DNA of 64,000 bases from the IMG/VR virus record IMGVR_UViG_3300007169_000667, positions 26,421 through 90,420 of that record. One strand, written 5' to 3'. Position numbers and translations under genes: made by a program. The notes beneath the pieces are model-generated. The model searched no databases. It worked only from the letters and a program-made list of their open reading frames with translations, and had not been told where the DNA came from. Positions 1,033-47,369 of the stretch are shown piece after piece; position 1 is the stretch's first letter; every line of letters begins with the position of its first letter. This stretch comes from a virus. Taxonomy: Duplodnaviria; Caudoviricetes.

Positions 1033-1037
1033 GTTTA

Positions 1038-6137: not shown

Positions 6138-6147
6138 CATTCTTATC

Positions 6148-9329: not shown

Positions 9330-9775
9330 AACAAATGATAAAGCGTAAAGATGGGTCTTACTCACAACGTGGATTGTGGGATAATTTGAGGGCCAATAAA
9401 GGATCAGGTAAGAATCCCACAAAAGAGATGCTTAACCAAGAGGCTAAAATTAAAAAAGAAAGTCGCTTAAAGAAAGCATATATGGCTAAGGGTGGAAACA
9501 TTCGTCATACAACTAAAGGTCCAGGAGCGAACTACCGTCCTACAAAACAAGGAGCAGGAATGACTCAGAAAGGTGTAATGGCCTATCGTAGAGCAAACCC
9601 TGGATCTAAACTAAGCACTGCTGTTACAGGTAAGGTAAAACCTGGAAGTAAGGCAGCTATGCGTAGAAAGTCTTATTGTGCTAGATCACTAGGTCAGTTA
9701 CGTAGATCTTCACAGGCTACACAGAATGATCCTAATAGCAGAATTAGACAAGCACGCAGACGTTGGAAGTGCTAA
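9326..9775 (+). CDS. Basic core protein with a DUF6321-like domain
   Basis: 149 aa; GAGMTQKGVMAYRRANPGSKL...RRKSYCAR...RWKC; ATGA overlap with the upstream gene. Confidence 0.55.
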   Translation: MKQMIKRKDGSYSQRGLWDNLRANKGSGKNPTKEMLNQEAKIKKESRLKKAYMAKGGNIRHTTKGPGANYRPTKQGAGMTQKGVMAYRRANPGSKLSTAVTGKVKPGSKAAMRRKSYCARSLGQLRRSSQATQNDPNSRIRQARRRWKC

Positions 9776-9806
9776 AAACCAAAATTAAAAAACTAAAACT
9801 AAATAT

Positions 9807-9962
9807 ATGGCCGCTAAAGCATCTAAATCAAAATCAACTTCTACTGCTTCAAAGTTTAAAGTTAAACCAAAGATCCGCAGAAAAGGAGTAGTAGCAAAAA
9901 CTAAAGCTTCAAAGTTAAAGTCTAGTAAGAACTACTTAAAGAAATCACGAGGTCAGGGGTAA
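9807..9962 (+). CDS. Small highly basic protein (51 aa), putative DNA-condensing peptide; missing from the ORF track
   Basis: MAAKASKSKSTSTASKFKVKPKIRRKGVVAKTKASKLKSSKNYLKKSRGQG*; 15 K, 3 R, no D/E; A-rich leader; followed by a terminator. Confidence 0.75.
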   Translation: MAAKASKSKSTSTASKFKVKPKIRRKGVVAKTKASKLKSSKNYLKKSRGQG

Positions 9963-9985
9963 GCAATTACCCCTTGCTTTTTTTT
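9955..9985 (+). terminator. Intrinsic terminator
   Basis: AGGGGTAA-GCAA-TTACCCCT stem with GNRA loop, then TGC and T8. Confidence 0.8.
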
Positions 9986-10003
9986 ATTAATCTTGTATAT
10001 TTG
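9974..10003 (+). promoter_or_regulatory. Bacteroidota primary-sigma promoter for the ejection-protein operon
   Basis: TTG (9974-9976), 19 nt, TATATTTG (9996-10003); matches the -33/-7 consensus. Confidence 0.7.
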
Positions 10004-10066
10004 TATAACTAGCTTATTTCCAAGCAGTTATTAACATACTAAGTTAATAACATTAATCATTAAAAC

Positions 10067-12388: not shown

Positions 12389-12393
12389 AAACT

Positions 12394-14087: not shown

Positions 14088-17000
14088 ATGCCATCTGGTA
14101 ATCTTGGATTTAATCCCTTCTATGGAACAAAAGACTTAACTGTAGCTGCAGATAGACAACTTAATTCTGAAAGAGGTTTACAGTCTTTTGAAACTACGTT
14201 ACGCAAAGGCGCTATTGCTGATCAAAACTATCAGAATAAATTAGTAGAAGAAAATAGAAACTTAAAATTAAATTCTTTAAAGAGTCTGTATATGCAGGCT
14301 TATGATAATCCAATTTTAGCAGAGAAGTCTGCTGCTTCAATGTTTAGTCGTATAGAAGGAGCAAGAGATAAAAATTCTATTAATGCTATTCATCAAGAGC
14401 TAGAATCAATTAGAGAAAAAGCAGAAGATAATAAGTATTTGTTTGATGTTGCAGAGTTGGGAGACTCTTTACTTAACTGGTATGGCAGAGCTCGTGGTGT
14501 AGTTGAGGGTAAAGACAAATTACTTAAGTCTAAAGATATAGATTTAAATGAGTCTACTAAGTGGTTAACACCATCTGATCTCGTTACTAATATTAAATCC
14601 CATATAAATGAGATTGATTACAAATCTTTTGGTGTTAATCTTTTAAATAGTTACGGGAGTCCGGATGAGTTAAACAAAAAGCTAAAACAAAGTCTAGCTT
14701 CTCCTGTTGCTCAGAATGCTTTTGATGACTTATTAACGACTAAGTTACAAGATAATTTTATCACAAGAGGGAATGACTTCTATCGAGAAGGACCAGAAGC
14801 TAAACAGTTTCAACAACAAGCTTTAAATTCACTTAAAAATCCTGATGACCTTGCTAAGAAGTACTTTAAATATGATTTAGAGAACGAAACTATTGGTTCT
14901 TTACGTTCCGCAATTAGTTCAAAACTTACAGAACTTATAGTCTCTCCTAAATCAAAAGATGAGTCAGTAAACAAAGAGAATGATCGTTTAATTACTTCTT
15001 ATAGACAGTCTCTAGAGTTATTAGACAAACGCCAAAAAGAGAACGCTAAGATTTATGGAGTTAATAAATACGAACCTGATTATGAAAGATTAGGAGGAAA
15101 AGGCAGAGGAGGAACTGCAAATTCTTTACTTTCAGGAGTAGTAGATTTATCAAATGCCTTTAGTAGTAGGAGTGACTTTGAGGGAACTATTTATAAGAAA
15201 GCATTGTATGCTCCTGAAGTAATTTCTTATACACCTGATGGTAAGCCAGTAATGTCTAATCAGTTTATGTATGAGAAAGAAGATGGTTCTACTGGTTTTA
15301 ATTTTGGAGCAATACCTGAGGCAGGTGCTGCTATGATAAGTCAAATGTTACCTATTCTTTCTGTAGGATCTGTGGTAGGAGGAGTAGTAGGAGGAGCTGC
15401 AAAAAGTATTGATGCAGCTGCTAAGTTAGCAGAAGGATATTCTACCTTAAATAAAGTATCTGCATTTGGTAAAGAACTTCGAATGGCTGATAGACTCTCT
15501 ACTTTTGCAACAGTTACTGCTGGTACCTTACCTACAATGATTGCAGAAGAAAAAAAGTGGGGAGGCAACTATTTTAAAAGAGCACTAGCTAAAGCATCAG
15601 TAGAAGGTTTGACTGAGGGTATTGGATTCCCTGACGTTGGGGCTTTAAAGTTTAAACCTTTTCAAGCAGATCTAGCTACTTCAGCAAAACGAGCAGCAGG
15701 AATTGAACTTAAGTTTACTGACAATGCTAGAAACTTCTTTAATTCTGCTGGACAATTTGGAGTTATTGGACTTAAACAAAACGCAGTAGAAGCACTAGAA
15801 GAAGAGCTTTCATTACTAGGAAATGCTTTTTTAGAGACTACACTCATGCCTGAAGAGTTTGTAGGTAGAGATAAAACAGAAATAACTGGTGAGAGTATGC
15901 TTGATACTTTTGTTGAGTCTTTTGCAGCAGGCGCTATCTACTCAGGGTTTACAACTGGATTTCAAGGATATGCCGCAGGTAATAAGTCGCATGTTCAGAA
16001 TCAAGCAGACTGGGAAGCAGCAAATAATCCAGAGCTATTTAAAGCTAAGTTAAAACAGCTTAATGAAAAAGGTAGTATTTCTGACCAACAATATGCTCAA
16101 GCTGTACTAGATGTTAATAGGAAGTCAGCTGTTTTAAATGGTTTGTTTGGTTTTGATAGCATTAGAGATGCTAAGACATTGTTAGAAGACAAAGATGAAC
16201 AGTACAACTATTTTATTAATCATCTAAGAGCTGACGAACTAGTTGATATTAATTACGATGCCCTAACTGATCAAGAGAAGCAAATATTTGCAACTAGAAA
16301 ACTTGCAGATAAAATAGACTCTAAAGGAAGAGCTAGAATGGATGAGATTAGAAAAGAACTTGTGGGTCTGTATAAAGAAGAGTTGACCGTAGAGAATGAT
16401 AAAAAAATTAAAGATCTGTCAAAAGAATACTATGCTATCCGAAGAGCTAACATAAAAACAATAAATAAAAAAGATTTAACAGCAGAAGAAGAAAAGTTTT
16501 TAAAAGAAAAAGGAATTATAGGCGAGAAAGACTTTGAATATACTCAAGCAGACATTGATGCTGAGTTATCTAAGGTTACTACTGATATTTTAAAGACCCA
16601 GAAGAGAATAGAAAAGTATGCTAATTTATCTGAAGAAGAGAAAGCTAAAGTTATTTCTAATGCCTACGATGAAAAAATAGCTAGTCTTGATCAGATTACG
16701 GATCCACAGGAACTTATACAATCTAGAGTAAATGTACAAAGAGATCTAGATTATCTTAAACTTAAAGGAAACTATAAGGATAAAGCACAGATTGCAAACA
16801 GAGAACGTTTGCTAGATGCTTATGGAGAAAGATTTGATCAACTTACAAATCAAAGGGACGAATCTGGAAGAAACTTTTTAGAACAGTCTATAGAGAATAT
16901 AGACTATGATACCTTAGAAAATACTTTGGATCTTTATGGTATTACTAAGCTTCGTAATCAGATAGAAGATAATTCTGATTTTATTAATCAGGAGATGGCA

Positions 17001-20000: not shown

Positions 20001-20483
20001 TGGGAAATAGCAAAATTTAATGATAAGACAGGTACTTATCAGTCTATTAGCCTAGATGAATTAAAAAATATAAATGAAAAGTATGGCTCTCCAAAAGACT
20101 TGTTACTTAGTTTGGCTGCTAAACCTTTGATTCAAGATATTGAAAACTTTGAAAAAGTAGAATACTCTGAAAAAGATAAATCCTCTGCTAATGGTATTAT
20201 TCCTTTAGAAAATACTGTATCAGCAGAACAAGTAAGGTTGGGTAAAAAGTATGGTCAGACTTATACTTTGGAAGACTTTATCAAAGATTACGATGCAGAA
20301 CTAGCTGCCTCAGAACAATCTACACCTCCTAAGCAATCATTAGCAGACAGACTTAACAGTGTAAACGCAGGGGAGATGTTTGATCAAGATGATATAGACC
20401 AAGCAAAAAAAGCAAAAGAAGATTGTGCCGGATTAGATCGTGCTAAACAATTAAAAGAGATAAAAAAGAAACCTAAGTTGTAA
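14088..20483 (+). CDS. Giant ejection protein A
   Basis: 2131 aa; Gly/Ala-rich hydrophobic segments at about residues 410-440 and 610-630; coiled coils; S/T/P linkers; single Cys2113. Confidence 0.6.
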   Translation: MPSGNLGFNPFYGTKDLTVAADRQLNSERGLQSFETTLRKGAIADQNYQNKLVEENRNLKLNSLKSLYMQAYDNPILAEKSAASMFSRIEGARDKNSINAIHQELESIREKAEDNKYLFDVAELGDSLLNWYGRARGVVEGKDKLLKSKDIDLNESTKWLTPSDLVTNIKSHINEIDYKSFGVNLLNSYGSPDELNKKLKQSLASPVAQNAFDDLLTTKLQDNFITRGNDFYREGPEAKQFQQQALNSLKNPDDLAKKYFKYDLENETIGSLRSAISSKLTELIVSPKSKDESVNKENDRLITSYRQSLELLDKRQKENAKIYGVNKYEPDYERLGGKGRGGTANSLLSGVVDLSNAFSSRSDFEGTIYKKALYAPEVISYTPDGKPVMSNQFMYEKEDGSTGFNFGAIPEAGAAMISQMLPILSVGSVVGGVVGGAAKSIDAAAKLAEGYSTLNKVSAFGKELRMADRLSTFATVTAGTLPTMIAEEKKWGGNYFKRALAKASVEGLTEGIGFPDVGALKFKPFQADLATSAKRAAGIELKFTDNARNFFNSAGQFGVIGLKQNAVEALEEELSLLGNAFLETTLMPEEFVGRDKTEITGESMLDTFVESFAAGAIYSGFTTGFQGYAAGNKSHVQNQADWEAANNPELFKAKLKQLNEKGSISDQQYAQAVLDVNRKSAVLNGLFGFDSIRDAKTLLEDKDEQYNYFINHLRADELVDINYDALTDQEKQIFATRKLADKIDSKGRARMDEIRKELVGLYKEELTVENDKKIKDLSKEYYAIRRANIKTINKKDLTAEEEKFLKEKGIIGEKDFEYTQADIDAELSKVTTDILKTQKRIEKYANLSEEEKAKVISNAYDEKIASLDQITDPQELIQSRVNVQRDLDYLKLKGNYKDKAQIANRERLLDAYGERFDQLTNQRDESGRNFLEQSIENIDYDTLENTLDLYGITKLRNQIEDNSDFINQEMALTADENLAASQVRILEKLLTATPEERQSALAVFLDNVAPKNAMYAYNVEALNKQFPGIKFTVEELDIAREALIQRRSEMKAQEIAGQPVTEEGLTDEENADVEEFSSMVNTASTPSTPSNTPASSTTSSPTQPIDESGKSQTKLTFKEGYAKQVGDYKKKYPTDYINKFKEFLVNIVARKFGRGTRDFDYIVGLVNSLFNKSITISQFEQSIASMADIISKDIAARKRNKTNSDTAENKLASLNAVSYFAKRFVREELPTTAASAPVVAATPVANPLPANLNTETKNKALDAQLARREARLLELNSPLRSAAIEFDSKDVRRTDPAEVRNAKAIESLGGPGAQIRIQSRKGTAMVFLAMKYPDKTEEQIDEDFRRIESIFENNSMTIEQWNALTREQQDAILAPMHELLGEEYFDRSTLGYFIVNKGDGFTVNSAVMITAPNQEEGSLSLFDGYPLQLNLTKLVSKGKDVVFPEEHSKTLQDVKRLRTFLTENPYSFVDTEFSVSEGVLPKSASQKKAAEIENETIAQSNASDFEIADSEGQEIFGKTFKFNLGRIYFNNNGNPVILGNTNIQEQEAEAIAEMIFSETIPSDFVDQAGLEKYLFSLINIIDKKNRVHFFPNNNYPSKSEAVEYPLTVVQTTYVNGKPVNKILTKEEFLDFLKKSFYKADRTILQNGDPMIRVSLVDGKIVTTKQSYSDYLKDTHTFPVTAGGELITPINKVVYPDQKEFEKKVLEVLPKTQPTPPQVQPSVSSPSVSTSTNQPEAVDLHLVQHAKLKEVVEKNPILNSLFKGAYDNLTPELYDQLVQFIYDNPGKVTYNSIEYTDSSKSAYGIVPYTTDSNPIFIFVGIQLPGREKPFPLVMLSNDDLEVRGIDKKSIQLTMPKQNTAPVIPTAPTQTVISKTDFEKRKQKDDAKPSRESVKYKLQNKIAGIDNPKPGNEVTNLSEAIKIAGAKLATPIEINEGEITHVIFDQEESNFRFTYKKQKFAAFYITNVKGNVRWEIAKFNDKTGTYQSISLDELKNINEKYGSPKDLLLSLAAKPLIQDIENFEKVEYSEKDKSSANGIIPLENTVSAEQVRLGKKYGQTYTLEDFIKDYDAELAASEQSTPPKQSLADRLNSVNAGEMFDQDDIDQAKKAKEDCAGLDRAKQLKEIKKKPKL

Positions 20484-20509
20484 TTTTAGAGTATCTTAGT
20501 GTTACGTAT

Positions 20510-20517
20510 TATATTTG
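20510..20517 (+). promoter_or_regulatory. Putative -7 promoter element for the RNA polymerase gene
   Basis: TATATTTG in the 62-nt intergenic gap; no TTG at the -33 spacing. Confidence 0.45.
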
Positions 20518-20545
20518 TTAAAACTAATTATAAAATAAAACTAGA

Positions 20546-23500
20546 ATGATTTGCCCTAATCTAAGTGACCCTAATATTCGTGCAGAGTTTAACTCTTTAA
20601 AGAATGTTGTAGGAGAAGACTTTGCTTACTTTCTTTGGAATAGAAACCAAGGTAATCCCTTGAGTAAAAAGACTATTATAAAAAATAAAAAAGAAGTTGT
20701 CGTAGATAATTCTATTTATAGTAACTTTTTATCTCAGTATCAGGGTAATGAAGCTAAAGCTATCTTTGCAGTAGCTGTTACATTTAGTAACAAGTTCAAG
20801 AAGCAGTATCCAGGATTTGATGGATTCAACTCTTTTATACAGTCTAAAGTTGTTCATTCCTACATTACAAAAAACGGAGGAGACTTAGATGCTTTGGCTA
20901 CTAAGATTATTGCTAAAGTAAATCAAGGATTTAAGGCAGAAAGATTTAGGCCAGAGGAAATTCAAGAAGTGAGCAGAGAGATGCTACAAAACATCTCAGA
21001 CGATGTAGATAAAACTATTGATAAGCCAACAGGTCGCCAACTATTAGATGCTTATATATGGTTTTCACAATCACCTTTATCTAACTATGTAGGTTTTGCT
21101 AACTTAAGTAATATTGTTAATCAGAAAGCTTTTGCTCAATGGACAAAAGATGCAATTACCTTGTATCAAGGTTCAGACTCTTCTGACTTGTATCATGAAT
21201 CTTTTCATGAATTTACACAAAGATTCTTAACTAAAGCAGAGAAAGCGGCTTTGTACGAATTAGTGCGTTCCAGACCTGGAAACATTAACTTAGGAGGGAC
21301 AGAGATTCCACATTATTCTCTTACTAATAGACAAATAGAAGAGGTATTAGCAGAGTCTTTTCGAACCTACTCTTTAAACAGAAGCCAAGAACTTTCTCCT
21401 GAAGAACAAGCAATACTTGCAGCATCGGAAGAAGAAACTCTAGAACAACCTGTAAGAAATTTGTTTCAGCGTATAATGGACTTCTTACGTAATCTATTTA
21501 CTAAAAAGACCAGTATTACTCCTGAAGGACAGATTGTTGAAGAGAAAGCCCCTATAGATGAATTATTTGAGAAACTGTATAGAGGCAATCTCTCGGAGTA
21601 TAAACCTTCTGACTTAAATATAGAACATAATAAACTTAATAGAACTAAAGAGTTTACTTTAGAGGTAGTTACAAGTGCGGGAGAAAAAGTATCCATCGAG
21701 TACACTTCTGTTGAGGGTGCTGAGATTCTTAGTGCTATTGACTATTACTTTAATGCAGCAGTAGATAGAATGGGAATTAATGCTGCATTCTTTAATAACT
21801 CTAAACTAAAAGCACAATTACTACCTAAGATCTATGATCAGGTAAAGACGTCTTTAGAGGCTGCTATTGAAAACTATGAGTCTCAATTAGAGACTGCAGA
21901 TCCAGCTACTGCAGAAATTCTTGAAGAACGTATTAATTCTCTTAAGCCCTTAGTCTACAGTAAAGATGGACAAGATAAGTGGGCTGAAACAGTAGAGTAT
22001 CATAAAGGATTTTCTAAGGGAAACATACTTAAAACAAAAGAAGGAGATGATACCAAAGACATAGATTCTGTATTAGATGAGATAGCTGAAGAAGACCGTA
22101 GTAGAAACGAATATGCTTCAAAGTCAGCTGAGATGATCAATCCTATTGATCTTGCTTCTCCTGAGATATTAGAACTTATTAAAACTCTTCCAGATATTAA
22201 AAGAAATGAATTAGGAGAAGAGATTCAACAGGTGGGAAGTATTTTAGGTCTACCCCAGGTAGGAGACTACCTAACCAATAAAAACTTAATTCTAAATACT
22301 GTAAGCGGTATTAAGAGTTACAGTGAGGCAATCCAAGCTTTAGTAGAAAAAGCAGACTTGTCCCCTCAACTTCTCTATTTTGTACAAAGAATGCCCAAAA
22401 CTACTGGTACATTGAGTATAGAAGAGGAAGCATTAAAAGCTGGATTTCTACAGTTTGCTTCTATGCCTACAGTAGTTCCTTTAAATATTCGATCTACAGT
22501 AGAAGATACTCCTGGAAAGAAACCAGTTTTAAAGACTAGTGTGTTTGTTGAAAATACATTGTCTCTAAATAACTTGATGGAATACTTTGATCAAGACTTT
22601 ATTGAAAATTCTAGTAGAAAATATAGGAACGTAGATGTAAATAGTATCAATGTTCCTACCTTTAGTGTTAAGTCTGTATTAGCTGATTATCTAGGACTAG
22701 CTCCTTTTGTTGCTGAAGATGCTTTTAGATTTTTTAAGGATGTATTTGGCGTAGATTTATATGGAGGAGTATCTCCATCACTTATGTTTGATAGAAAAGG
22801 TAACTTCATTCCAAGTTCAAACCTAAGAATTACACCTATTGGACTTAAAAATATTCTTACAATTGCTAAACTATCAGTCAATAAGATGGTATTAATGGAT
22901 CAAATTGCTCGGTCTGGCAATCTAGATTTAATTGCATTAACTCCGCAGACAACTTCTCTTCCTCTAAGTACTTGGACTACAGATATCTCTAGTAAACTTC
23001 AAAAAGCTATTAACGCTCTTAAAGATAATGACCCTGTTAAAGTGTTGTATAAACAAAGATTTGGTTCGATTACAACATTTAAAAATGAGAGAAGAAACTT
23101 CTTTAACACAGTAGAGTCTTTTTATAACTTATCTAATTCAGCTTCTTATCTTAATTTAGAGAAGAATTTAGAATGGTCTATCAGAGAATGGAATCATATG
23201 ATAGATACCGTAGAAGATTTAAATAAGGTAAAGAACTTATCCCAACTTAAAGGACACTTAAGTCCAGAGACAAATAACTTTATTAAGTACAGTGCTTGGG
23301 GTAAAAAGATGTTTGACTTCAACGGAGATCGTAAGAAAAACTTAGCAGGAGAAGACGTTTCTATAGAAGTATTAAACTTTTCTGGTATGCAGACTGGTAT
23401 TTTTGATGGTAAGAAAACAACAAATCTCAGTGCAGACTCTAAGTTAGTTCAGGACTTTTTAGGATTTTTAAAAGATCGCACCTTTGAAAACATAAGAGCA

Positions 23501-26500
23501 GGAGCTAAAAACAGTGCTTTTGCTACTAGAATAAATGGAAACTTAGCAGATAGAACGTATCATAAGTTTGAGGACTTTATTGTGATGAATAAGACAGTCC
23601 TTGCTTCTTCTGTACAGTCACAGTTTACAGATTATTTAAAGTTTGAAGTCTCCCGTATGTATGATGATAGAGCTAAGTCTACTCAAAAAGAAGTACGTGG
23701 TTCAGAATTTATTATACTTCAAGACATTCTTTCTCCTCAATTACAAGATGAGCTTAAGAATCTTGTGGCAGTAGCTGAGTCTAAAGAATCATTAATAGAA
23801 GCAGTCAGTCAGTTGTATAGTGGTAGAAGAGATACTCGTTATGGTGAGTTTAAAGATTCTCTTACTCAATACTTTCAAGACCAATTAAGAGTTTTTAAAG
23901 CTGCTTTAACTGAAAGTATTGCAGATGGTAAGAAAGCAAATTTTGTAAAGAAGTTTAATCAAACATTTACTGAAGAGGGAGATGCTAGAAGTGAGTCACA
24001 AATTGATGCGATTATTCTAGCTTATATTACCAACTACTATACTCATCAGATAGAATATATGCATATGTTAGTGGGAGATCCTTCTAACTTTAATGCAAAA
24101 GGAGGAAACTGGAGGGAAGTATTTAAGCGTTTAGGTGGTAGTATTTCTCCAGGGAAACAACCACACTTAGATGATCAGACTTTATTATCTTGGAATTCTG
24201 AGCCTAAGTATGCAAGACTACTCGAACAACAAGTTAAAGGTAGAGGCAAGTCTAGAGAGTATGATGAGAATTTTAAATATATTCAATTTAAAGATATTAA
24301 ATCGTTTACTAGGTCTCAGGAAGATGTTTTAAGAAAACAAATCGAAGATGGATTTGTAGATTGGAAACTAAGTTTACTTCCTAAGAATGCATCAAAGGCA
24401 AAGAAAGCAGAAGTTATACTAGCCGCAAAAGAAGAGATTAAAACTAACCTTGATGATATGTTTGCTCAGGACAAAGAGTCCGATGCTCAAGCGTATGCAA
24501 ACTTAGACTTTATTCGTTTCTATCTTAACTCAATAGATGAGTGGTCTTCAGAACTTGAAGAAGCCTACAATCATGAAGTTAAAGTATTAGAAGCAATCAA
24601 AGCTTATAGGGCTAATAAAGGTACCAAACAATCAGTATTAGATTTAATAGAGCAATCAAACAAAGGTATCCTAACTTCTTTAAAATTAGGTTACTATGGT
24701 TCTCCTTTAGAGAATACTAAGTATGTAACTTTAGGTAAATACTCCGTATTCAATCTATTACCATCTGCAGTATTTAATACTGACTTAGAATCTTTTATGT
24801 TTGATATGTTTGAGAAGGGTGTGGACTTTGCAACTTTTGATTCTGGAAACAAGATGTCTACTCCAGTAGAGTCAATTCCTTTCTACAAAGAAGACGATGT
24901 ATTGTCTATCAACAATATTCCTACAAAAAGTATTCTTACCTATCCTATAAGTGGACTACGTAGACAACAGTATATAGCACCTAAGTTTAAAAATGAGGCA
25001 ACTCTTTCTACTCAGATGGTTAAGTTGTTGTTTGGGGATTTTTATATTAATGGAGAGATTAATCCAGCATTTGCACAGATCCAAGATAAAATGGACTCCT
25101 TACAACAAGAGTTTATTAACATGGTTCAGAATGTCGTAAATGCGGAGAAAGCCAAAATCTATACTCAAATAGAAGCAGAGGTAGACGAAAATGGTGTTAT
25201 AAAAACCTTCTCTATTCCTGCCTTTAAACGGTGGTTATTCAAAGAATTCGACAAAAAAGATATTCCAAACTCGGTATATGTCTACATTGACTCTCTTGAT
25301 GAGAATGAGTTTATTAGATCTATTGATGGATCCTCTAGAAGAGACTTGGTAGAAAATGTAATTAGTTCGGCTTTATCTAAACGTGTGCTTAAACCAAAGA
25401 TGTTTGGAGAAGCCTATATTCAATTAGCTTCTTCTGGATTTAATCAGTTAGGAACAAGATTTAAAAAACCTAGTAAGGAAGACGTTAGTAAATACGGAAC
25501 TTCAGGATTGAGGGACTACAGAGTAGAGAATGGTAAAACCCAACCTGCTGATATTAAGATTGCCTTTAATCCTAAAAAACATTTACCTTTATTAAACTTA
25601 GAGTTTAATGGTCAGAGGATAGCAACTCTTGCTAGGTTAAATGAGGCACTTTTAGATGACAACTGGGTAGAACTTCATTCAGAAAAAATTACTATGGCAG
25701 GTGTACGTATTCCCGTACAAGGATTTAACTCTATGGAATACTTTAGAGTGAGAGAGTTCTTACCTACAAGTGCAGGTCCTGTTATTGTAGTACCTCCTTC
25801 AATTGTTACTAAGTCTGGATCTGACTTCGATATAGATAAGTTGTTTATGTATGAGCCTATGTTAGACTCTGAAGGTAATATAATGGATGATTCTATTGTA
25901 GACTCTGCAGACTTTACAAAGAACATGCTTAACAACATAAGAGAGCGAGTTGTTAATCTACAAAATAAGAAAGAGATCAAAGAACTCTTAAACAATACAG
26001 GTGCTTACTTTATAAAAGGATTATACGAGAAAGACATTAAGAACTTAAAAGGAGTATTGTATGACTTATCTACTAGAAAAGCCTCTTACGATGATCCATT
26101 GGTAGAAGGTGCACACCTACGTATTAAACTATTAATTGCACGTATAGAACATCTATTAAAAGAAAATCCTTCATTAGCTGATACTTTGGCTAAGTTAAAA
26201 GAGATAAACAAAGACTTAGATACATTGCAGGGTTATACTCCAAACAATATTAAAAATGTATCTTCTAATAGAATGATTAAAGTTATCTCTGGTGTATTAT
26301 CTGAACCTGCTCTATTCTCTAGATTTACAAAACCTAATTCTAATAAAATCTTACCAGAGATAGCTGCTAAATACTTAGCATTACGAAATAAAGGAGGTAA
26401 GATTAGTTCTACGGATATGTTTTCTCCATTAACCTCAGTTGCTTTGTTTAAAGAAAATACTTTAGGTAAAAAGTCTTTGGGTGTGGACGCTAAGATGAAT

Positions 26501-28360
26501 GCATTACATAAACTTTTCCAACAAGTAGGATTAAGATTTAAGGCAGGTAATATAACAAACAACTATAGAATGAAGGCAAACAGAACAACATCTGGAGAAA
26601 TCATTCTAGGAGGATATATAGATGCTGACAATGACAATCTGATATCAGATGTAATCAATGAGTTTATTAATGGTCACGTAGACATTGAGAAAGAAGACTG
26701 GATTAACTATTTTAATGGTGATAATGTTCGGACTCCTCTTATTCTACAAATGGTTTTAAATGGTACTCCAGTTAAGGATGCTATTCTTTTAGTGAATCAA
26801 CCTATTATTCAACATTTCTTAAGAGAGAATTTTGTTGGACATATAGGAAGAACACTTGGATCAAAGTCTAAATCTGAAAAACAATACGTAATCGAGGCTT
26901 TAAAAGTACTTGGAGTATCGCCTATTATGGAGGAAATCCAAACTCCTAAAGGAAAAAAATCAGTTATTAACTTACAAGATACAGTAACAATGTTACTTGA
27001 AGACGATTACTTTAAGAGACATATAGAACGTTTTAATGAAAATGATTATCCGCCTTATGTAGAGAATAGTAGGAAAGCATACGATATTATTTTAGAAGAA
27101 GCTAAAACTGGAAACATAGAAGCTCAATCTAAGTTGGCTGCACAGGTTGCCTTCTTAACGCAGTATCTTGCTGTAAAGGATCAACAAGATGTACTATATG
27201 ATTTGACTTCTAATATAGATTTTAATACAAATAACTACAGAAATATTACAGATTTTTTCTCTGTAGCCTATGGTATTAATTCAGCGTCTGATTATTTCAA
27301 TGGAGAAGCAGTCGAAAAAATTCTTTCTAATAGCGTAGTATCTCCCTTTAACATTGTATCAGAAGCAGTAGAGATTTCTAGAAGTGTCTTCGATATTCTA
27401 GCTTTAGCTCCTGTTCAGGAACAAATACAAAAAATACTAGATGAAAATAAATATTGGAGCAGAGATAGGGCAACTAGAGAGGTTAATAAGATTCTTAATA
27501 ATTTTATGCATATTCTTATTAGCAGATTTGGGGATGACTATAGTAGAGATTTGTATAATAGATATGGAAGAGATTCTGGATTCTTAGAGAAGGATAAACC
27601 CAACAACTTAAAGTCTAAGTTTATTACTTTGTTTAAGGATAGTAGTAAGCCTGAGTTGATGCAGTTTGCAAACAAAAATTTATTTTTAGCTAACTTTAAT
27701 ACTATTGATGTAAAAGACTCAAAGATGTTTTATGTAGCTATGAAGACAAATGAGAAAGATCCTGATGCTATAGATGCTGTACAAAAAGCATTCATGGATG
27801 GATTAAATCATCCTAATCCACAAGTGTCTCAGTTTTTTACAGATGTTGCTAGTGCTACTATAGTATCACAAGGATTTAATATTCGTTTTAGAAGTATACA
27901 ACCATATCTTCCTATTAAAGGATATATTGATGTAGCAGCAGGTTTATCTGTTACTTTAAAAGGTTTAAAGTATTCTTATAATAACTCTGACTCTAACGAT
28001 GAAGAAGCTTTAACTATCTTTACAGAAGGCATTAAAGCAGCATATGCCCAATCTAAACAAAAGGGTCTATCAGAACTGGATAGAGTGTTTCCTAAGTATA
28101 AATTTAAGGGAGATGTAGCAATCGTAGAAGAGGTTGATGAAGATGATGTTCTTCCATTAGAAGAAGGTAATACTTATGATGATCCAGAGTTTGACGATGA
28201 AGAAGCTTACAGAAGTCAAGGAATTTTAAATAGTTCTAGAGGTAATAGACCTGTTGACTTAGGAGAATCTACAGGTGTAAATGTTGCACGTAAGTCAGGA
28301 AAAAGTACGCCACTAAGTTCTACAGATGCAGAAGTGACTAAGTGTAACATAGAAGATTAG
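20546..28360 (+). CDS. Giant ejection protein B: virion RNA polymerase (phi14:2 gp66-like) with N-terminal zincin domain
   Basis: 2604 aa; catalytic GSDFDIDKL (D1760/D1762/D1764) preceded by RIPVQG..S; FKRLGG block; HESFH (217-221) with downstream EEVLAE. Confidence 0.88.
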   Translation: MICPNLSDPNIRAEFNSLKNVVGEDFAYFLWNRNQGNPLSKKTIIKNKKEVVVDNSIYSNFLSQYQGNEAKAIFAVAVTFSNKFKKQYPGFDGFNSFIQSKVVHSYITKNGGDLDALATKIIAKVNQGFKAERFRPEEIQEVSREMLQNISDDVDKTIDKPTGRQLLDAYIWFSQSPLSNYVGFANLSNIVNQKAFAQWTKDAITLYQGSDSSDLYHESFHEFTQRFLTKAEKAALYELVRSRPGNINLGGTEIPHYSLTNRQIEEVLAESFRTYSLNRSQELSPEEQAILAASEEETLEQPVRNLFQRIMDFLRNLFTKKTSITPEGQIVEEKAPIDELFEKLYRGNLSEYKPSDLNIEHNKLNRTKEFTLEVVTSAGEKVSIEYTSVEGAEILSAIDYYFNAAVDRMGINAAFFNNSKLKAQLLPKIYDQVKTSLEAAIENYESQLETADPATAEILEERINSLKPLVYSKDGQDKWAETVEYHKGFSKGNILKTKEGDDTKDIDSVLDEIAEEDRSRNEYASKSAEMINPIDLASPEILELIKTLPDIKRNELGEEIQQVGSILGLPQVGDYLTNKNLILNTVSGIKSYSEAIQALVEKADLSPQLLYFVQRMPKTTGTLSIEEEALKAGFLQFASMPTVVPLNIRSTVEDTPGKKPVLKTSVFVENTLSLNNLMEYFDQDFIENSSRKYRNVDVNSINVPTFSVKSVLADYLGLAPFVAEDAFRFFKDVFGVDLYGGVSPSLMFDRKGNFIPSSNLRITPIGLKNILTIAKLSVNKMVLMDQIARSGNLDLIALTPQTTSLPLSTWTTDISSKLQKAINALKDNDPVKVLYKQRFGSITTFKNERRNFFNTVESFYNLSNSASYLNLEKNLEWSIREWNHMIDTVEDLNKVKNLSQLKGHLSPETNNFIKYSAWGKKMFDFNGDRKKNLAGEDVSIEVLNFSGMQTGIFDGKKTTNLSADSKLVQDFLGFLKDRTFENIRAGAKNSAFATRINGNLADRTYHKFEDFIVMNKTVLASSVQSQFTDYLKFEVSRMYDDRAKSTQKEVRGSEFIILQDILSPQLQDELKNLVAVAESKESLIEAVSQLYSGRRDTRYGEFKDSLTQYFQDQLRVFKAALTESIADGKKANFVKKFNQTFTEEGDARSESQIDAIILAYITNYYTHQIEYMHMLVGDPSNFNAKGGNWREVFKRLGGSISPGKQPHLDDQTLLSWNSEPKYARLLEQQVKGRGKSREYDENFKYIQFKDIKSFTRSQEDVLRKQIEDGFVDWKLSLLPKNASKAKKAEVILAAKEEIKTNLDDMFAQDKESDAQAYANLDFIRFYLNSIDEWSSELEEAYNHEVKVLEAIKAYRANKGTKQSVLDLIEQSNKGILTSLKLGYYGSPLENTKYVTLGKYSVFNLLPSAVFNTDLESFMFDMFEKGVDFATFDSGNKMSTPVESIPFYKEDDVLSINNIPTKSILTYPISGLRRQQYIAPKFKNEATLSTQMVKLLFGDFYINGEINPAFAQIQDKMDSLQQEFINMVQNVVNAEKAKIYTQIEAEVDENGVIKTFSIPAFKRWLFKEFDKKDIPNSVYVYIDSLDENEFIRSIDGSSRRDLVENVISSALSKRVLKPKMFGEAYIQLASSGFNQLGTRFKKPSKEDVSKYGTSGLRDYRVENGKTQPADIKIAFNPKKHLPLLNLEFNGQRIATLARLNEALLDDNWVELHSEKITMAGVRIPVQGFNSMEYFRVREFLPTSAGPVIVVPPSIVTKSGSDFDIDKLFMYEPMLDSEGNIMDDSIVDSADFTKNMLNNIRERVVNLQNKKEIKELLNNTGAYFIKGLYEKDIKNLKGVLYDLSTRKASYDDPLVEGAHLRIKLLIARIEHLLKENPSLADTLAKLKEINKDLDTLQGYTPNNIKNVSSNRMIKVISGVLSEPALFSRFTKPNSNKILPEIAAKYLALRNKGGKISSTDMFSPLTSVALFKENTLGKKSLGVDAKMNALHKLFQQVGLRFKAGNITNNYRMKANRTTSGEIILGGYIDADNDNLISDVINEFINGHVDIEKEDWINYFNGDNVRTPLILQMVLNGTPVKDAILLVNQPIIQHFLRENFVGHIGRTLGSKSKSEKQYVIEALKVLGVSPIMEEIQTPKGKKSVINLQDTVTMLLEDDYFKRHIERFNENDYPPYVENSRKAYDIILEEAKTGNIEAQSKLAAQVAFLTQYLAVKDQQDVLYDLTSNIDFNTNNYRNITDFFSVAYGINSASDYFNGEAVEKILSNSVVSPFNIVSEAVEISRSVFDILALAPVQEQIQKILDENKYWSRDRATREVNKILNNFMHILISRFGDDYSRDLYNRYGRDSGFLEKDKPNNLKSKFITLFKDSSKPELMQFANKNLFLANFNTIDVKDSKMFYVAMKTNEKDPDAIDAVQKAFMDGLNHPNPQVSQFFTDVASATIVSQGFNIRFRSIQPYLPIKGYIDVAAGLSVTLKGLKYSYNNSDSNDEEALTIFTEGIKAAYAQSKQKGLSELDRVFPKYKFKGDVAIVEEVDEDDVLPLEEGNTYDDPEFDDEEAYRSQGILNSSRGNRPVDLGESTGVNVARKSGKSTPLSSTDAEVTKCNIED

Positions 28361-28374
28361 ATTATATTTAAAGT

Positions 28375-28403
28375 TTGATATTTTTAATTAAAGATTATAT
28401 TTG
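28375..28403 (+). promoter_or_regulatory. Bacteroidota-type promoter
   Basis: TTG, 18 nt, TATATTTG upstream of the 1934-aa gene. Confidence 0.55.
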
Positions 28404-28417
28404 TAACATACGTAAAA

Positions 28418-31400
28418 ATGAGCAAAGGCTGTATTATACATGTAAATAATCCTATATCAGGAGAAAGACATGCTTCCACTTTAGGATATCTATTAACGCA
28501 ATTAGATTTAGATAGCGACTATATTGCACAAACTATAGAAGCTATTTATGATAACGTTGGAAGTACTCGTTCTTGGGGACCTCTTAAATCGTCTATGACT
28601 GCTGCTCATAATCCAGAAGCAGATATAGAACAGTTTTTAGGTTTAGCGGGAATTCAACTTCCTCCTAGACAACTTGCTTATGTAAAGGATGTACAAAAAT
28701 TTTACGAGGAGAGAGACTTAGATATAGAAAAAGAATATAATCTAACTGATGTACAACAACTTGTACTAGACAATCAGCCTTATTCTACTTTCTCATTACA
28801 AATAGAACCTGTACAGAGCGATTTACCTGGTGCACAAAGAACTTACAAATTGACTCCTGCATCAGGAAAAAATGAGTTTAAGTTAATGATGACGGAGGCT
28901 TTAGAGTACGAGTTGATTAGAAGTAACTCTGCTTTAGAGTCAGCTAACGTACAACATCTTCAGCCATACTTAGACTTTACTAATCCTGATATCTTTGATA
29001 CTGCTACAAAAATTATTAATGATCCTAGTACTCCACAATATCAGAGAGAGATACTTAAAAAACTAATTAGAGTACTTCATATAGATCCAAACATCAGTAT
29101 GGACTTTAGAGTAGAGCATACAGGAGTTATGAGGGATCGCAATGGTGACTATCTTATTAGGCCTGCAACATATGATGCCAGCAATCGTAAACTAAGTTTT
29201 AGTCCTATAGCATTAGGTGCTCTAGATATAGATTCTTTTAAGAAGTTGTTTATTCATGAGTTAGTCCACTCTGTTACTGTGCATGCTATGATGTCTCCTA
29301 GTAATGCTACTGATAAAAAATTGGTTGAAGGTATAAGAGAGGCCTATCTTTATTATAAGACTAAATATAAAGGACAAGCTCCTGTAGGAGATTATTACGG
29401 TTTAGCAGATGAGTTTGAGTTTGTAAGTGAATTCTTAAGTAATCCTGCCTTTAGAGATTCTATAGAAAAAAATGATGTAGAATATGCTAGAAATATTTTT
29501 GAAAAGATATGGGACTTTATACTAAGTAAGCTAGGTTTAACTAAGCCAGATAAAAAGATTGCCCCAACTCAAGAAGCACTTGATGAATTGTTAGATAATT
29601 ATTTTGCAGAAGTAGTATTTAATAACAACTTAAATACTAAAAGTAATCCATTAGATAAACAAAAATTTAACTATGAGATGACAACTATGCAAATGGAAGA
29701 AGCTAAGGAGTACTTATTAAAAAATTCTGAATTCCAAAAAAATCTTACTAGGTTTCTAGACTCAGACATTATTGACTGGAAAAAGATTTTTATGGAGGCG
29801 AATAGTATAAAAATTAATTTGCCTTTGCTATATAAATCAGAAGAGTCTCTGCAAAATATATCTATTGGAGAAGCTAAAGAGGCTTTTAGATCCCTAGTTA
29901 CATACTTTCATGATACAGCTAAGTATCTTAGATCTTTACAATTATCTATGGATTCTATGTCTGCAAGTGGTATCTATACTCAAGAGGAGATGTTTAGACA
30001 AGCATACCATGCTCGTGAGTTAGGTGAACACTTTAAGCAAGTAATGCGTGAGTATACAGACATTATGGGAGACACTGGTACAGGCACTGTATTAAATACT
30101 CAAATAAGAAACATAGAAGCTTTAGCTAACTCACTTACACAAGACTACTTTAATAAAGCTACTAAAGCTATTGCAGAGAAGTTAGCTAGAGAGATTGCTC
30201 CTCAAACAGAATCTATGCGAGCAACTATTGCTCAGAATATAGAACAGTTTCAAAAATCTTATGATTCAGCAGTTGCTTCAGGTAATAATACATTAGCTCA
30301 GAATCTTAAGAATAAAATAGCAGAGGAAACCAAGAAGTATAATGAATTGGCTACAGAAGAAAATATTGCCAGAGCATTTACTGGCAAATTAAAAGATATT
30401 AATTTATTCAGTCTTTATGCAGAATCTGCAGCACTAACAGGTAATATTATTACAGGTACTGTGGGTTCTATGTTGAGTAAAATGTATGACGAAGCTAACG
30501 CAGAATCTATTGTACTAGAAAGAAAAATGCGGGGATTAGGAGATAGGCTAGAAAAAATTACAAAGTCTAAAGGGGGTAGGAATCTTACAGGTTTAGATTT
30601 TCAAAATACTTTTGGACCATACATCCGTAAAGTAACAGTTAAAGAAATTAAGAAGGGAGAGATAGTAGAAAGAGAGACTTTAGTTTTTAATACAGAGATG
30701 GATGAGATCGCTTATCAAAACGATCGAATTACTCTTATTCATGCTATCCAGCAACTTAAAAACCAAAAAAATCAAACAGATATTATAAAAGAAGAGATAA
30801 AGAAAAAAGAAAGAGAGTTAGTTAATCTACAAGAAGAGTTTGAAGAGAAGCCTTTTATAGATGAATACTATCGTATTCAATCCTTATTAAGTGATGAAGC
30901 AAGGGAGGCTAGAGAAGAAATCATAGAGGAGATGCGTAAGATTCAAGCATCTTCTTTAGACGAAGAGAATAATGAGGATGAATTAGATAAGTTAGAAGAC
31001 TTAAAGTCTCAGTTAGAACGTTTAGAGGCAGATACCGACATCAACGGTATAGTTAAAGATGAAAAGGGTTTACGTATAGCTGCAAGTATAAGAGAGTGGA
31101 AAAAAGAGAAAAATGCTGCAGAGTTATACAAATATGAGCTAACAGAAACTAATAAAGCTTTATTTAATGTACAACTAACAAAAAAGAAAGCTTCTTTGGA
31201 TAGAGTTAAATTAGAGTATGAAGATGCTGTAGCAACAAAACAACCTGAAGAGGTTATAAATTCTAAAAAAGCTATACTAAATGCAGTCCAAAAAGACTAT
31301 GATGTTTGGAGAGCCAATAATGCTGTAAGAAAGATTAGTCCAGAGTTTTATGAAGAACGTAGAGAGATCTTAGATTCTATTTCTGCTATTCAAGAGAAAG

Positions 31401-34222
31401 TAGATGTTCCTGGCATGAGAACTGTTTCAGAGATCTGGGATGAGATTTTTAGCCTATTAAAAGGATTTAAGAATAATGATAATCTTTATGATGGATCAAG
31501 AATTCCTAATGAGACTGTTACTGTAGAGGAGAATGGTGTTGTTAGAGAAGTAAATATTCCTATACGTATAGCAGAGTTAGAGAAAGAGTTAGAAGAAGTT
31601 AAAGAAACTATTAAAGAGGAGTCTCCTGAACTATCCAGAGAAGATCGTGTAGCTCTTCGTAATCTATATAAAGAGCTTTCTGCAATCCAAGAAAAAGTCT
31701 ATACACCTGCATATATTGAAGTATACAATACTAAGTTAGCTGAACAAAGAGCCAAACTTTCTGCTCAAAATTCTGCTAAGTATGCAGGAGATCAAAATGG
31801 TAGTTTGCTAACTTCGGATGCTGTAGAGGCATTAAAAAATACTACATGGTATAAGATGAACCATAAAAAGGTTTATAACTATTCTGAAGCTGCAGGTACC
31901 TTTATAGAAGAAGATGAACCACTAACCTATTGGATGACGACTGAACCTACAGATAAGTCCTACATTAGTTTTAATGAACCCTCGTTTAGATGGAAAACTA
32001 TTACTCTTAATCCTGTTTTTAGAAAAGAAACCGTTACTCAGAACAAGAAATCTAAACGAGTATCATTGGATAATACAAAGACTAAGTATATAAATCCAGA
32101 GTACGCTAGATTAAGTACTGAAGAAAAACAGTTACTTTCTGAAATACTTGAGGTGTATAATGAGATGCAAAAAGGAGTTCCTAGAAACCTTAAGAAAGGT
32201 TTAGAACTTCCTTCTGTAATGAAAGAAGGCTTTGAGGCTTTAGGAAATAAGAAATTTGGTACTATTGGCTCTCAGATAAAAGGCGTAGCTAGTAACATAT
32301 GGGATAATATGACCTTTAAGAATGATGAAGATATGTCTAGAGACGAAGAAGGCAGTATGGTGACAAAGGTTAATAGAAGACTTTTCTTACGTTACAATAC
32401 TCCTATTGGGGCAGACAAGATGAGTGTAAACTTTATTAATAGTTTAACTATGTACGGTACTGATCTGATTAGGTTTAGAAAAGCTTACGCTAATGCTCCA
32501 TATTTATACGGTATACAAGATGTTCTTAGTGAAAAAATTCCTGGAAGTCGTATCCAAAAGATGGTAAATAACTTATTTGAACGTAAGTTACAAGGTAAGT
32601 CTAGAAAGCCTATGATTAATAATAAAGCGGGTAGGGTATTTGAGTGGGCTTTAGATAAGGGATTGGGTATTGGTGCAGAGTTAGCACTTAGTTTACGTTT
32701 ACCTTCAAGTATTAAAAACTTTGGAGCTGGTACAATAAACATCTTTGAACAGTTAAAGATTTACGGTGTTAGTCGAAAAGATGTTACTGTAGCAATGGGA
32801 AAGAATGCTAAGCATATTGGCGATTTATTTAAATCTTATGTAGAAGATGGTATAGATTCTCCTTATATTCAGAAGATGCGTTACTTCAATATTATGGTTG
32901 AAGATCATTTAACTGAATCAGGTAAAAGAGTATATGTTAGTGATTTAGCTAAAGGAGTTAGAAAATACAATCCTCTTTATATGCTTTCTTTTACTAGGAC
33001 ATTTGGTGAATTTGAAATGCGTAGTGCGGTAGCAGAATCTTTATCTAAGCAGTTTATGGTAGAGATGACCGATGGAACATTCAAGCCTATAATGGATGCT
33101 TACATTGTAGAAGAGGGTGTTATTAAACCTGATCCAAATATTAAAGACATAGAAGGATTTAGTGGAGTAGAATCTGCATTTAGGCAAAAAGTAAACGCAG
33201 TAAATGCTCTTATTCATGGAGCGTATGGTGCAATGGATAAAGGAGAATATAGTAGATATACTATAGGAAGATTAGTTGGCTACATGAAGGGATGGTTTAC
33301 CTATCAGTTTATTAGAAGATTTGGAAATAGAAGAATGAACTATGGAGCAGGTATGGAACAACAAGGGTACTTTAGAACCTTGGTACAGGCTCTTAAGTTA
33401 ATCATGCAGAATAGATTTTCTTTTGCAGCTGTAGACAGTTTAATGAGTCCTAGAGAAAAAGCAGAAGCTATGGCAGCAGTTTATGACATGCTTGTGTTAA
33501 GTGTAAGTACTGCTATTGCAATTGCTTTAAATGCTTTAGTATACTCTGATGATGACGATGAGGAAAATATCTGGGGAGCTTATTTTTTACTTTACAATCT
33601 TTTACAAATCGAAGATGAATTAAACACGTTGAATCCTGTCTTTGGAACAGGATCTATTGTCTATTCTCGTATGATGAATAATGTAGACGGTAAGAATATA
33701 GGACAATTTTATTTAGAGAAAAATTTTATTCTTCCTTTGCAGGGAGCTTTTGAGTCTATTAAATTAGCTTATCAATTTGTTAACCCATTAGATGATGTAG
33801 ATATGTTTGATGAGTATATTGAACGTAGTAGAACAGGTAATATTTTAAATCCTAAAAGATATAAGCCTGATCCTGTACTTCAGGGACAGATGGAGTTTTT
33901 TGCTAGATTAGAAAAAATGTTTGGACTTGCAGTAAGTACAAATTACTTTACTGGACCTGAGTATATCTATAGGAAATATGAAGCTAAAAACCCAAGATGG
34001 TTTATATCTACATTAGATTCTGAGATAAAGGGAACGAAAGGAGACATATCTTCTATTAATAAACAAATTAAAGCTATGACTCGTCAGTTAGACTATTTAG
34101 ATGATGAAGAAACTAAACAATCTTTACAATCACAAATAGATGATCTTCAAAAAGAAAAAGTCCAGCTTAAAGAACAACAGAGAGAGTTGTCTGACTATGA
34201 AGAAGGATTAGATAGAAGTTAA
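28418..34222 (+). CDS. Giant ejection protein C with N-terminal zincin domain and C-terminal hydrophobic helices
   Basis: 1934 aa; HELVH (280-284) followed by EFVSEFLSNPAF; long coiled coils; hydrophobic MLVLSVSTAIAIALNALVY and IWGAYFLLYNLL; single Cys5. Confidence 0.65.
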   Translation: MSKGCIIHVNNPISGERHASTLGYLLTQLDLDSDYIAQTIEAIYDNVGSTRSWGPLKSSMTAAHNPEADIEQFLGLAGIQLPPRQLAYVKDVQKFYEERDLDIEKEYNLTDVQQLVLDNQPYSTFSLQIEPVQSDLPGAQRTYKLTPASGKNEFKLMMTEALEYELIRSNSALESANVQHLQPYLDFTNPDIFDTATKIINDPSTPQYQREILKKLIRVLHIDPNISMDFRVEHTGVMRDRNGDYLIRPATYDASNRKLSFSPIALGALDIDSFKKLFIHELVHSVTVHAMMSPSNATDKKLVEGIREAYLYYKTKYKGQAPVGDYYGLADEFEFVSEFLSNPAFRDSIEKNDVEYARNIFEKIWDFILSKLGLTKPDKKIAPTQEALDELLDNYFAEVVFNNNLNTKSNPLDKQKFNYEMTTMQMEEAKEYLLKNSEFQKNLTRFLDSDIIDWKKIFMEANSIKINLPLLYKSEESLQNISIGEAKEAFRSLVTYFHDTAKYLRSLQLSMDSMSASGIYTQEEMFRQAYHARELGEHFKQVMREYTDIMGDTGTGTVLNTQIRNIEALANSLTQDYFNKATKAIAEKLAREIAPQTESMRATIAQNIEQFQKSYDSAVASGNNTLAQNLKNKIAEETKKYNELATEENIARAFTGKLKDINLFSLYAESAALTGNIITGTVGSMLSKMYDEANAESIVLERKMRGLGDRLEKITKSKGGRNLTGLDFQNTFGPYIRKVTVKEIKKGEIVERETLVFNTEMDEIAYQNDRITLIHAIQQLKNQKNQTDIIKEEIKKKERELVNLQEEFEEKPFIDEYYRIQSLLSDEAREAREEIIEEMRKIQASSLDEENNEDELDKLEDLKSQLERLEADTDINGIVKDEKGLRIAASIREWKKEKNAAELYKYELTETNKALFNVQLTKKKASLDRVKLEYEDAVATKQPEEVINSKKAILNAVQKDYDVWRANNAVRKISPEFYEERREILDSISAIQEKVDVPGMRTVSEIWDEIFSLLKGFKNNDNLYDGSRIPNETVTVEENGVVREVNIPIRIAELEKELEEVKETIKEESPELSREDRVALRNLYKELSAIQEKVYTPAYIEVYNTKLAEQRAKLSAQNSAKYAGDQNGSLLTSDAVEALKNTTWYKMNHKKVYNYSEAAGTFIEEDEPLTYWMTTEPTDKSYISFNEPSFRWKTITLNPVFRKETVTQNKKSKRVSLDNTKTKYINPEYARLSTEEKQLLSEILEVYNEMQKGVPRNLKKGLELPSVMKEGFEALGNKKFGTIGSQIKGVASNIWDNMTFKNDEDMSRDEEGSMVTKVNRRLFLRYNTPIGADKMSVNFINSLTMYGTDLIRFRKAYANAPYLYGIQDVLSEKIPGSRIQKMVNNLFERKLQGKSRKPMINNKAGRVFEWALDKGLGIGAELALSLRLPSSIKNFGAGTINIFEQLKIYGVSRKDVTVAMGKNAKHIGDLFKSYVEDGIDSPYIQKMRYFNIMVEDHLTESGKRVYVSDLAKGVRKYNPLYMLSFTRTFGEFEMRSAVAESLSKQFMVEMTDGTFKPIMDAYIVEEGVIKPDPNIKDIEGFSGVESAFRQKVNAVNALIHGAYGAMDKGEYSRYTIGRLVGYMKGWFTYQFIRRFGNRRMNYGAGMEQQGYFRTLVQALKLIMQNRFSFAAVDSLMSPREKAEAMAAVYDMLVLSVSTAIAIALNALVYSDDDDEENIWGAYFLLYNLLQIEDELNTLNPVFGTGSIVYSRMMNNVDGKNIGQFYLEKNFILPLQGAFESIKLAYQFVNPLDDVDMFDEYIERSRTGNILNPKRYKPDPVLQGQMEFFARLEKMFGLAVSTNYFTGPEYIYRKYEAKNPRWFISTLDSEIKGTKGDISSINKQIKAMTRQLDYLDDEETKQSLQSQIDDLQKEKVQLKEQQRELSDYEEGLDRS

Positions 34223-47347: not shown

Positions 47348-47361
47348 AGTAAGTAGTTATA

Positions 47362-47369
47362 CAAATATA
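47362..47369 (-). promoter_or_regulatory. -7 promoter element of the 533-aa gene
   Basis: TATATTTGTATAACT on the - strand, identical over 15 nt to the promoter at 9996. Confidence 0.6.

Follow-up and report, generated by a model that had tools for sequence, protein, structure and literature searches.

Crass-like phages, which outnumber all other phages in the human gut, pose the question of how their giant cargo proteins, above all an RNA polymerase (RNAP) of 260-430 kDa, leave the head in the correct order. It is raised again by a stretch of 64,000 nucleotides (nt) from a caudovirus (IMG/VR record IMGVR_UViG_3300007169_000667, positions 26,421 to 90,420; in the following the window), which encodes three consecutive giant proteins on the plus strand: A (14088-20483; 2131 amino acids, aa), B (20546-28360; 2604 aa) and C (28418-34222; 1934 aa). 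These proteins are almost devoid of cysteine (Cys), and the few residues that exist are found where one protein ends and the next begins. What do these residues do? Comparison with related phages suggests that they join the three proteins head to tail.

Homology places the source phage as a divergent member of the Crassvirales, in which A, B and C, the first, middle and last link of the series, correspond to gp67, gp66 and gp65 of phi14:2 and to gp47, gp50 and gp49 of crAss001. B is the virion RNAP. It matches phi14:2 g066, annotated as catalytic RNA polymerase subunit (tblastn, E 8e-10), and carries the catalytic motif of two-barrel RNAPs, DFDID, at residues 1760-1764 (25823-25837, plus strand). 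The phi14:2 and crAss001 counterparts were found in virions by mass spectrometry and are regarded as ejected cargo; A, B and C are most likely packed in the virion and injected as well.

Four cysteines at two junctions

The open reading frames (ORFs) of A, B and C and all four Cys codons lie, to the base, where a preliminary description of the window had put them. Translation yields four Cys in 6,669 residues. A-Cys2113 (TGT, 20424-20426), the sole Cys of A, stands in an E-D-C context 18 residues before the C-terminal end. B has Cys3 (TGC, 20552-20554), in the context M-I-C-P-N-L, and Cys2600 (TGT, 28343-28345), 4 residues before its end, and no other. C-Cys5 (TGT, 28430-28432; M-S-K-G-C) is the only Cys of C. 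The remaining ORFs of the window contain 146 Cys in 11,129 residues (1.31 %), a background at which about 87 would be expected in the three proteins together. Three cargo-type ORFs directly upstream (653, 773 and 559 aa; within 7368-14073, plus strand) are free of Cys, as had been noted before for the latter two, and lie outside the Cys chain, as does a 149-aa ORF with two Cys in the same region. The ejection-type proteins of the window thus hold 4 Cys in 8,654 residues. For the window alone, the probability that four randomly placed Cys land one in each junction-facing end of 21 residues is about 2e-9; this figure is post hoc, and the real test is conservation.

Conservation of the terminal cysteines

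A comparison of Cys positions in orthologous gene trios, proposed in the preliminary description, was carried out, and the terminal Cys turned out to be conserved and paired in relatives. The four-Cys pattern is kept in all 11 close IMG/VR relatives, whose B proteins share 98-42 % identity with that of the window. Their A proteins have a single Cys 8-21 residues before the C-terminal end, with the E-[DA]-C context kept in L001, L002, L007, L009 and L010. Their B proteins begin with M-I-C-P-N and carry the second Cys 0-4 residues before the end, even at a length of 2886 or 3853 aa, and Cys5 is present in C. In some relatives a histidine adjoins the N-terminal Cys (M-A-R-H-C).

The same four residues occur in the cultured phages, in homologous proteins with the same neighbours. 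In phi14:2, the sole Cys of gp67 is its last residue (Cys1797), gp66 has only Cys3 and Cys2179, and gp65 only Cys3. In crAss001, Cys2339 is the sole Cys of gp47, even though gp47 is encoded on the opposite strand; gp50 carries a single internal Cys besides Cys5 and Cys2404, and gp49 has only Cys5. Window B is only about 22 % identical to its counterparts and differs from gp66 and gp50 by an N-terminal HExxH region. In p-crAssphage, the junction is represented by Cys1956 of the 1957 residues of gp45 and by Cys3 of gp44 (M-S-C). Thioredoxin-like proteins are encoded nearby in this genome, where gp39 and gp37 are named alongside gp44.

Both end Cys were found in about 100 of 120 B homologues with identities down to 23 %, usually without any further Cys. 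An alignment of 24 diverse B homologues, with a mean column identity of 17 %, contains only 45 invariant columns; C3 and C2600 are among them and are as invariant as the catalytic residues D1760, D1762 and D1764. C-Cys5 is likewise invariant in the C alignment. Throughout the chains the N-terminal Cys is found at residue 3-7 (3-6 in nearly all) and the C-terminal one 0-21 residues before the end (0-9 in the wider set of loci), and the outer ends are free: the first link has no N-terminal and the last link no C-terminal Cys. No conserved ligand other than Cys was seen around either junction end in the chain proteins compared.

Two further observations concern the ends and lengths of these proteins. 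Residues 1-40 of B (20546-20665; M-x-C-P-N-x-S-D-P...) match the N-terminal ends (residues 1-39) of the C proteins of L055 and L041, which come from genomes with A-B fusions (E 1e-8 and 7e-7), and an N-terminus of the type C-P-N-x-N-S-x-E-W recurs on many small and C-type links. From its sequence, the M-x-C-P-N type of N-terminus looks like a portable acceptor module. Moreover, A is 2131 aa long in the window and 1928 aa in L001 (L001:4152-9938), whose B is 98-99 % identical; the gap of 203 residues lies within A, and the only repeat found is a short 18-nt tandem at 20142-20187.

The number of cysteines follows the number of junctions

A profile-based scan added 76 further IMG/VR loci, which fall into 27 clusters when the catalytic region is grouped at 50 % identity, and their junctions were scored by an automated walk along the genes. 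Both facing ends carry Cys at 133 junctions and neither end does at 67; a single junction is discordant and holds an inserted gene for a GIY-YIG homing endonuclease. Internal Cys make up 35 of the 489,243 residues (0.007 %) in these loci.

The B homologues that lack the N-terminal Cys are A-B fusions, with N-terminal portions similar to A or gp67 (residues 476-876 of P0124, for example, match A residues 369-748); no separate A gene is found upstream in the fusion loci examined. Where such a fusion is followed by C (L016, L017, L019), only two Cys are found, one 0-1 residues short of the C-terminus of the fused protein and one at residue 3-4 of C. Where a small link stands between the fusion and C (L014, L015), this link has exactly two Cys, one per end (Cys3 and Cys130 in 131 aa; Cys4 and Cys300 in 300 aa). 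Full A-B-C fusions have no terminal Cys at all: P0131 contains not a single Cys in 4834 aa, and the two Cys of P0129 lie close to the active site. Conversely, chains of four proteins have six end Cys (L025, L030, L031, L033, L042, L061, L089, L092). L025 can be set against the nearly identical L028, with 98 % identity over B residues 1-2592 and 97 % over a further 215; it has one additional link and, with it, one additional Cys pair.

In the compared genomes the number of Cys is therefore twice the number of protein-protein junctions. This count excludes a single metal site of four Cys and argues against independent anchoring of the ends or homodimers. As far as comparative evidence can tell, it shows that the Cys pair across a junction acts jointly and that, in function, link and peptide bond can replace each other.

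Several candidates for exceptions were rejected. P0069 (L020) seemed to be a B protein without N-terminal Cys; the public gene call begins 22 codons late (L020:1741-1806), and a protein read from the in-frame ATG 66 nt further upstream begins with M-A-F-C, so that the Cys rule can be used to correct start codons. L093, at first taken for a co-loss of the pair in separate genes, proved to be a frameshifted A-B fusion, whose HEAWH and DFDxD are located in successive ORFs with overlapping frames. The apparent links of 229 and 197 aa in L048 and L092 are GIY-YIG endonucleases. Genes for such homing endonucleases occur among or beside the chain genes at L015:22762-23508, in L048 and L092 and at L014:5953-6639, and leave the Cys rule undisturbed. 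In L021 (P0096; JGI 3300012125) B is in pieces of 385 aa (with Cys4), 2462 aa and 308 aa amid small inserted genes, for which introns, recoding or assembly errors are possible explanations. Furthermore, the members P0123, P0124, P0125 and P0127 of one A-B fusion clade share one internal Cys 8 residues past the first Asp of DFDxD.

A predicted complex at the B-C junction

A structural model of the B tail with the C N-terminal domain had also been proposed in the preliminary description. It was computed for the last 60 residues of B and the first 375 of C, and places Cys5 of C and Cys2600 of B in contact, with a score of 0.66 compared with 0.01 for the best of three controls. Among 80 solved complexes this mark was attained 58 times, and among 110 mismatched pairs twice; the calibration is rough here because own alignments were used. 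The predicted contact between the two Cys is among the most confident ones and adjoins a modelled strand pairing of C residues 6-10 with B residues 2593-2598. The runs share at least 33 % of their contacts. Weak points are one of the three runs, which scored 0.02, and the predicted local distance difference test (pLDDT) value of the partner, which is at least 30 and was below 50 in at least one run.

Comparison with known systems

A precedent for a bond of this kind exists in a different phage family. In the pre-ejectosome of cyanopodophage A4 (A-4L), a disulfide between Cys1715 of gp27 and Cys5 of gp26 was seen by electron cryo-microscopy (cryo-EM) (PNAS 2025; PMC12002296). In the A-4L record, gp27 (1717 aa) and gp26 (1114 aa) contain no other Cys. 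The signature resembles the junctions of the window: the Cys of gp27 lies 2 residues before the C-terminal end and that of gp26 at position 5, with M-S-K-H-C at the N-terminus compared with M-S-K-G-C in window C. However, A4 has one such junction and no RNAP, and a phmmer search of A4 gp26-gp28 against all crass chain proteins gave no match at E 0.01. A single bond was reported for A4, neither as a general rule nor in connection with gene fusion (PMC12002296). In crAss001 virions, other inter-subunit disulfides were seen by cryo-EM (PMC10172136).

In some phages the three cargo proteins are fused, and cleavage of the polyprotein into three was proposed (10.1101/2020.03.07.982082). The A-B-C polyproteins of these crass-like phages have domains and order as in the window. 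They differ in their joints, which in P0131 and P0129 are peptide bonds without terminal Cys, whereas the window has separate genes with Cys pairs. The ejection proteins of the Schitoviridae, N4 gp50 and DEV gp71-gp73, are cysteine-free (PMC11445570); they share with the window the strong suppression of Cys in giant ejected proteins, the virion RNAP included, but are essentially without Cys, whereas the window proteins keep one per junction-facing end.

Cys suppression in N4-like ejected proteins (PMC11445570) and one terminal disulfide in A4 (PMC12002296) were thus already known, and the statement in the preliminary description that no such mechanism had been described stands only in part: the A4 bond had been seen by cryo-EM, whereas no paper was found in the literature on the terminal-Cys rule in crassviruses, on the chain or on the way in which it alternates with gene fusion. 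The papers on phi14:2 and crAss001 do not mention the Cys of these cargo proteins (PMC10172136; 10.1101/2020.03.07.982082).

A probable thread held together by disulfides

We consider it probable that in the virion A, B and C are coupled head to tail through disulfide bonds. In favour of links between the C-terminal end of A and the N-terminal end of B, and likewise between B and C, speak the facing Cys pairs, their loss on fusion, the addition of a pair with an extra link and the absence of Cys from the outer ends. This part of the preliminary description, the joining of the three proteins into one thread, is strongly supported by the comparison; the disulfide chemistry, for which it had named metal bridges as an alternative, and the ordered ejection that it had claimed are inferred. 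A disulfide would be the most economical chemistry for the link, because Cys alone is conserved at the ends, A4 offers a precedent, crAss001 has disulfides and the B-C complex was predicted as described.

The Cys pair at each junction would form an inter-protein disulfide in the assembled particle. A, B and C, in this order, would thereby become a single thread of about 6,700 residues, covalently equivalent to the polyprotein which is encoded as one piece in some relatives. The branch point would be only a few residues wide since the Cys are located at the extreme ends, which would suit a chain that passes, partly unfolded, through portal and tail. With less certainty, the link might ensure that the three proteins are packaged together at a ratio of 1:1:1 and leave in a set order, and it might be opened by the reducing cytoplasm of the host, which would release the polymerase. 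In the fused relatives a protease would take the place of the reductant in freeing the proteins. A broader proposal, which we put at somewhat less than an even chance, is that terminal disulfides replace peptide bonds throughout the Crassvirales. They would join the virion RNAP and its partners into a redox-reversible pseudo-polyprotein of 4,000-9,000 residues, threaded out from N- to C-terminus in a fixed order and unzipped by the reducing host cytoplasm, with joints that switch freely in evolution between stitched and fused.

Some points weigh against a disulfide thread. The host cytoplasm is reducing and many such phages inhabit the anoxic gut; given that cytoplasm, the disulfide would have to form in or after assembly. 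Cys alone also leave the specificity of pairing among several copies per capsid unexplained. A extends 18 residues past its Cys, a longer overhang than at the other junctions. Internal Cys are tolerated in a few gut phages; p-crAssphage (L102, BK010471), the prototype from the human gut, has 7 of them in gp44, even though the junction pair is kept. The A4 precedent is an analogy, because its proteins show no detectable similarity to A, B and C, and the B-C complex is a prediction with a low-confidence partner.

HExxH motifs in B and C

The two metal-site-like motifs on which a further claim of the preliminary description was built are both present: HESFH at B 217-221 (21194-21208, plus strand), with conserved E265, E266 and E270 downstream, and HELVH at C 280-284 (29255-29269, plus strand), which belongs to a zincin-like domain with H280, E281, H284, E334 and E338 invariant in the C alignment. 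A model of the C N-terminal domain (pLDDT 74) has its best fold matches, albeit weak ones (E 3e-3), among the zincins, namely the anthrax lethal factor protease domain, PPEP and selecase; in this respect window C resembles phi14:2 gp65, which has a known zincin-like domain.

In B, the motif HE[AS][WF]H is widely conserved about 1,300-1,540 residues before DFDxD. Together with E265, E266 and E270 (B 217-270, 21194-21355) it is near-invariant in most B homologues and A-B fusions; in phi14:2 gp66 and crAss001 gp50 the region is missing. A model of the 450-aa B N-terminal domain (predicted template modelling score 0.40) gave only short helical-hairpin matches and no clear match in Foldseek and VIA-align comparisons. 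Residues 217-270 may form a second metal site or a protease in the polymerase protein.

Terminal Cys and HExxH occur independently of each other. Terminal Cys without HExxH are found in phi14:2 gp66, in crAss001 gp50 and gp49 and in the C proteins of L014, L016, L017 and L019. HExxH without Cys is found in P0131, P0058, P0076, P0103 and P0120; P0131 has the motif at 1538 and 3770. The motif is retained in fusions without any Cys within about 2,000 residues.

Other explanations for the terminal cysteines

A metal ion (Zn, Cu(I) or Fe) could bridge the facing Cys, or all four could form one Cys4 site or cluster. Exactly four Cys in the window and in many relatives, again four in L014 and L015 despite their other architecture, and the histidine next to Cys in M-A-R-H-C would fit this. 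The single Cys4 site had to be rejected after chains with two (L016, L017, L019), six or no terminal Cys had been found, which exclude it as an obligatory feature. For a bridge at each junction no conserved ligand besides Cys is available, and a pair of thiolates without further ligands is ill suited as a structural site, so that we consider metal bridging improbable. Of a similarly low order is the probability that the terminal Cys act independently of each other, by anchoring to the portal, the capsid interior or the tail, or by forming homodimers A-A, B-B and C-C. Each protein is believed to be packaged in more than one copy, and tail and portal-vertex proteins of crAss001 have disulfides (PMC10172136). 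However, independent Cys would predict neither a Cys-free first N-terminus and last C-terminus nor 133 junctions with both, 67 with neither and one explained exception, and the complex model brings Cys5 and Cys2600 together. Peptide or thioester ligation, or a processing signal left from a polyprotein ancestor, is less probable still. Fused and unfused forms do alternate in evolution, and a Cys near the N-terminus is a requirement of chemistry of the native-ligation type, but the N-terminal Cys stands at position 3-7 and not at 1, and no intein, sortase-like or other ligation domain was found with Pfam and PHROGs. In addition, the former junctions in fused polyproteins are Cys-free, and Cys is therefore not part of a cleavage site.

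The preliminary description had also proposed a cysteine switch like that of matrix metalloproteases, in which the Cys pair of a junction would latch the zincin site close to it. The retention of HExxH with downstream Glu in B (H217, E218, H221, E265/E266) and C (H280, E281, H284, E334) and the zincin-like C N-terminal domain would be in accordance with such a switch. It is not supported, because motifs and Cys occur independently: terminal Cys persist where B or C has no HExxH, and HExxH persists in fusions far from any Cys and in Cys-free P0131. Moreover, the modelled contact of C-Cys5 is the B tail, in the N-terminal strand region 3-48, and not residues 280-334. We regard this proposal as very improbable. 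Chance, composition or a gene-calling artefact would have the post hoc odds for the window and the mechanical choice of start codons on its side; its probability is close to negligible, given that the pattern recurs across the 27 clusters formed at 50 % identity and is shared by three phages that are cultured or serve as reference, and that the apparent exceptions turned out to be a late start (L020), a frameshifted fusion (L093) and inserted endonuclease genes.

Genomic context and putative promoters

The giant genes follow CrAss_Ring_1, crAss_MUZ and DUF5856 genes (196-6528) and the small cargo ORFs, and the same order of ring, muzzle, DUF5856, small cargo and giant proteins is also found in relatives. 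On the minus strand, the other half of the window encodes a module for replication, which includes PolA, a Toprim primase and a dCMP deaminase. For A, B and C no family was found in Pfam and PHROGs searches, and B had no match among PDB chain sequences (phmmer).

Promoter-like motifs precede B and C on the plus strand: TATATTTGTT at 20510-20519, 27 nt upstream of the B start, and TATATTTGTA at 28396-28405, 13 nt upstream of the C start. The underlying motif, TATATTTGT[AT], occurs five times in the window compared with 1.1 expected occurrences (9996-10005, 20510-20519 and 28396-28405 on the plus strand; 47360-47369 and 55041-55050 on the minus strand). Four of the five sites are located directly 5' of a gene start, namely those of the 773-aa ORF, B, C and a minus-strand ORF of 533 aa, and the motif stands ahead of B and C in all relatives. 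Because it fits the -7 promoter element TAnnTTTG of the Bacteroidota, B and C may be transcribed from separate promoters.

Meaning for crass-like phages

The Cys rule has practical uses: with its help true start codons can be predicted, genes that are split or frameshifted can be recognized, and the proteins of the ejected chain can be delimited in uncultured crass-like genomes. For the biology of these phages it yields a concrete hypothesis, which could be tested cheaply on the cultured phi14:2 and crAss001, namely that their giant proteins would be held end to end by covalent tethers exchangeable with gene fusion.

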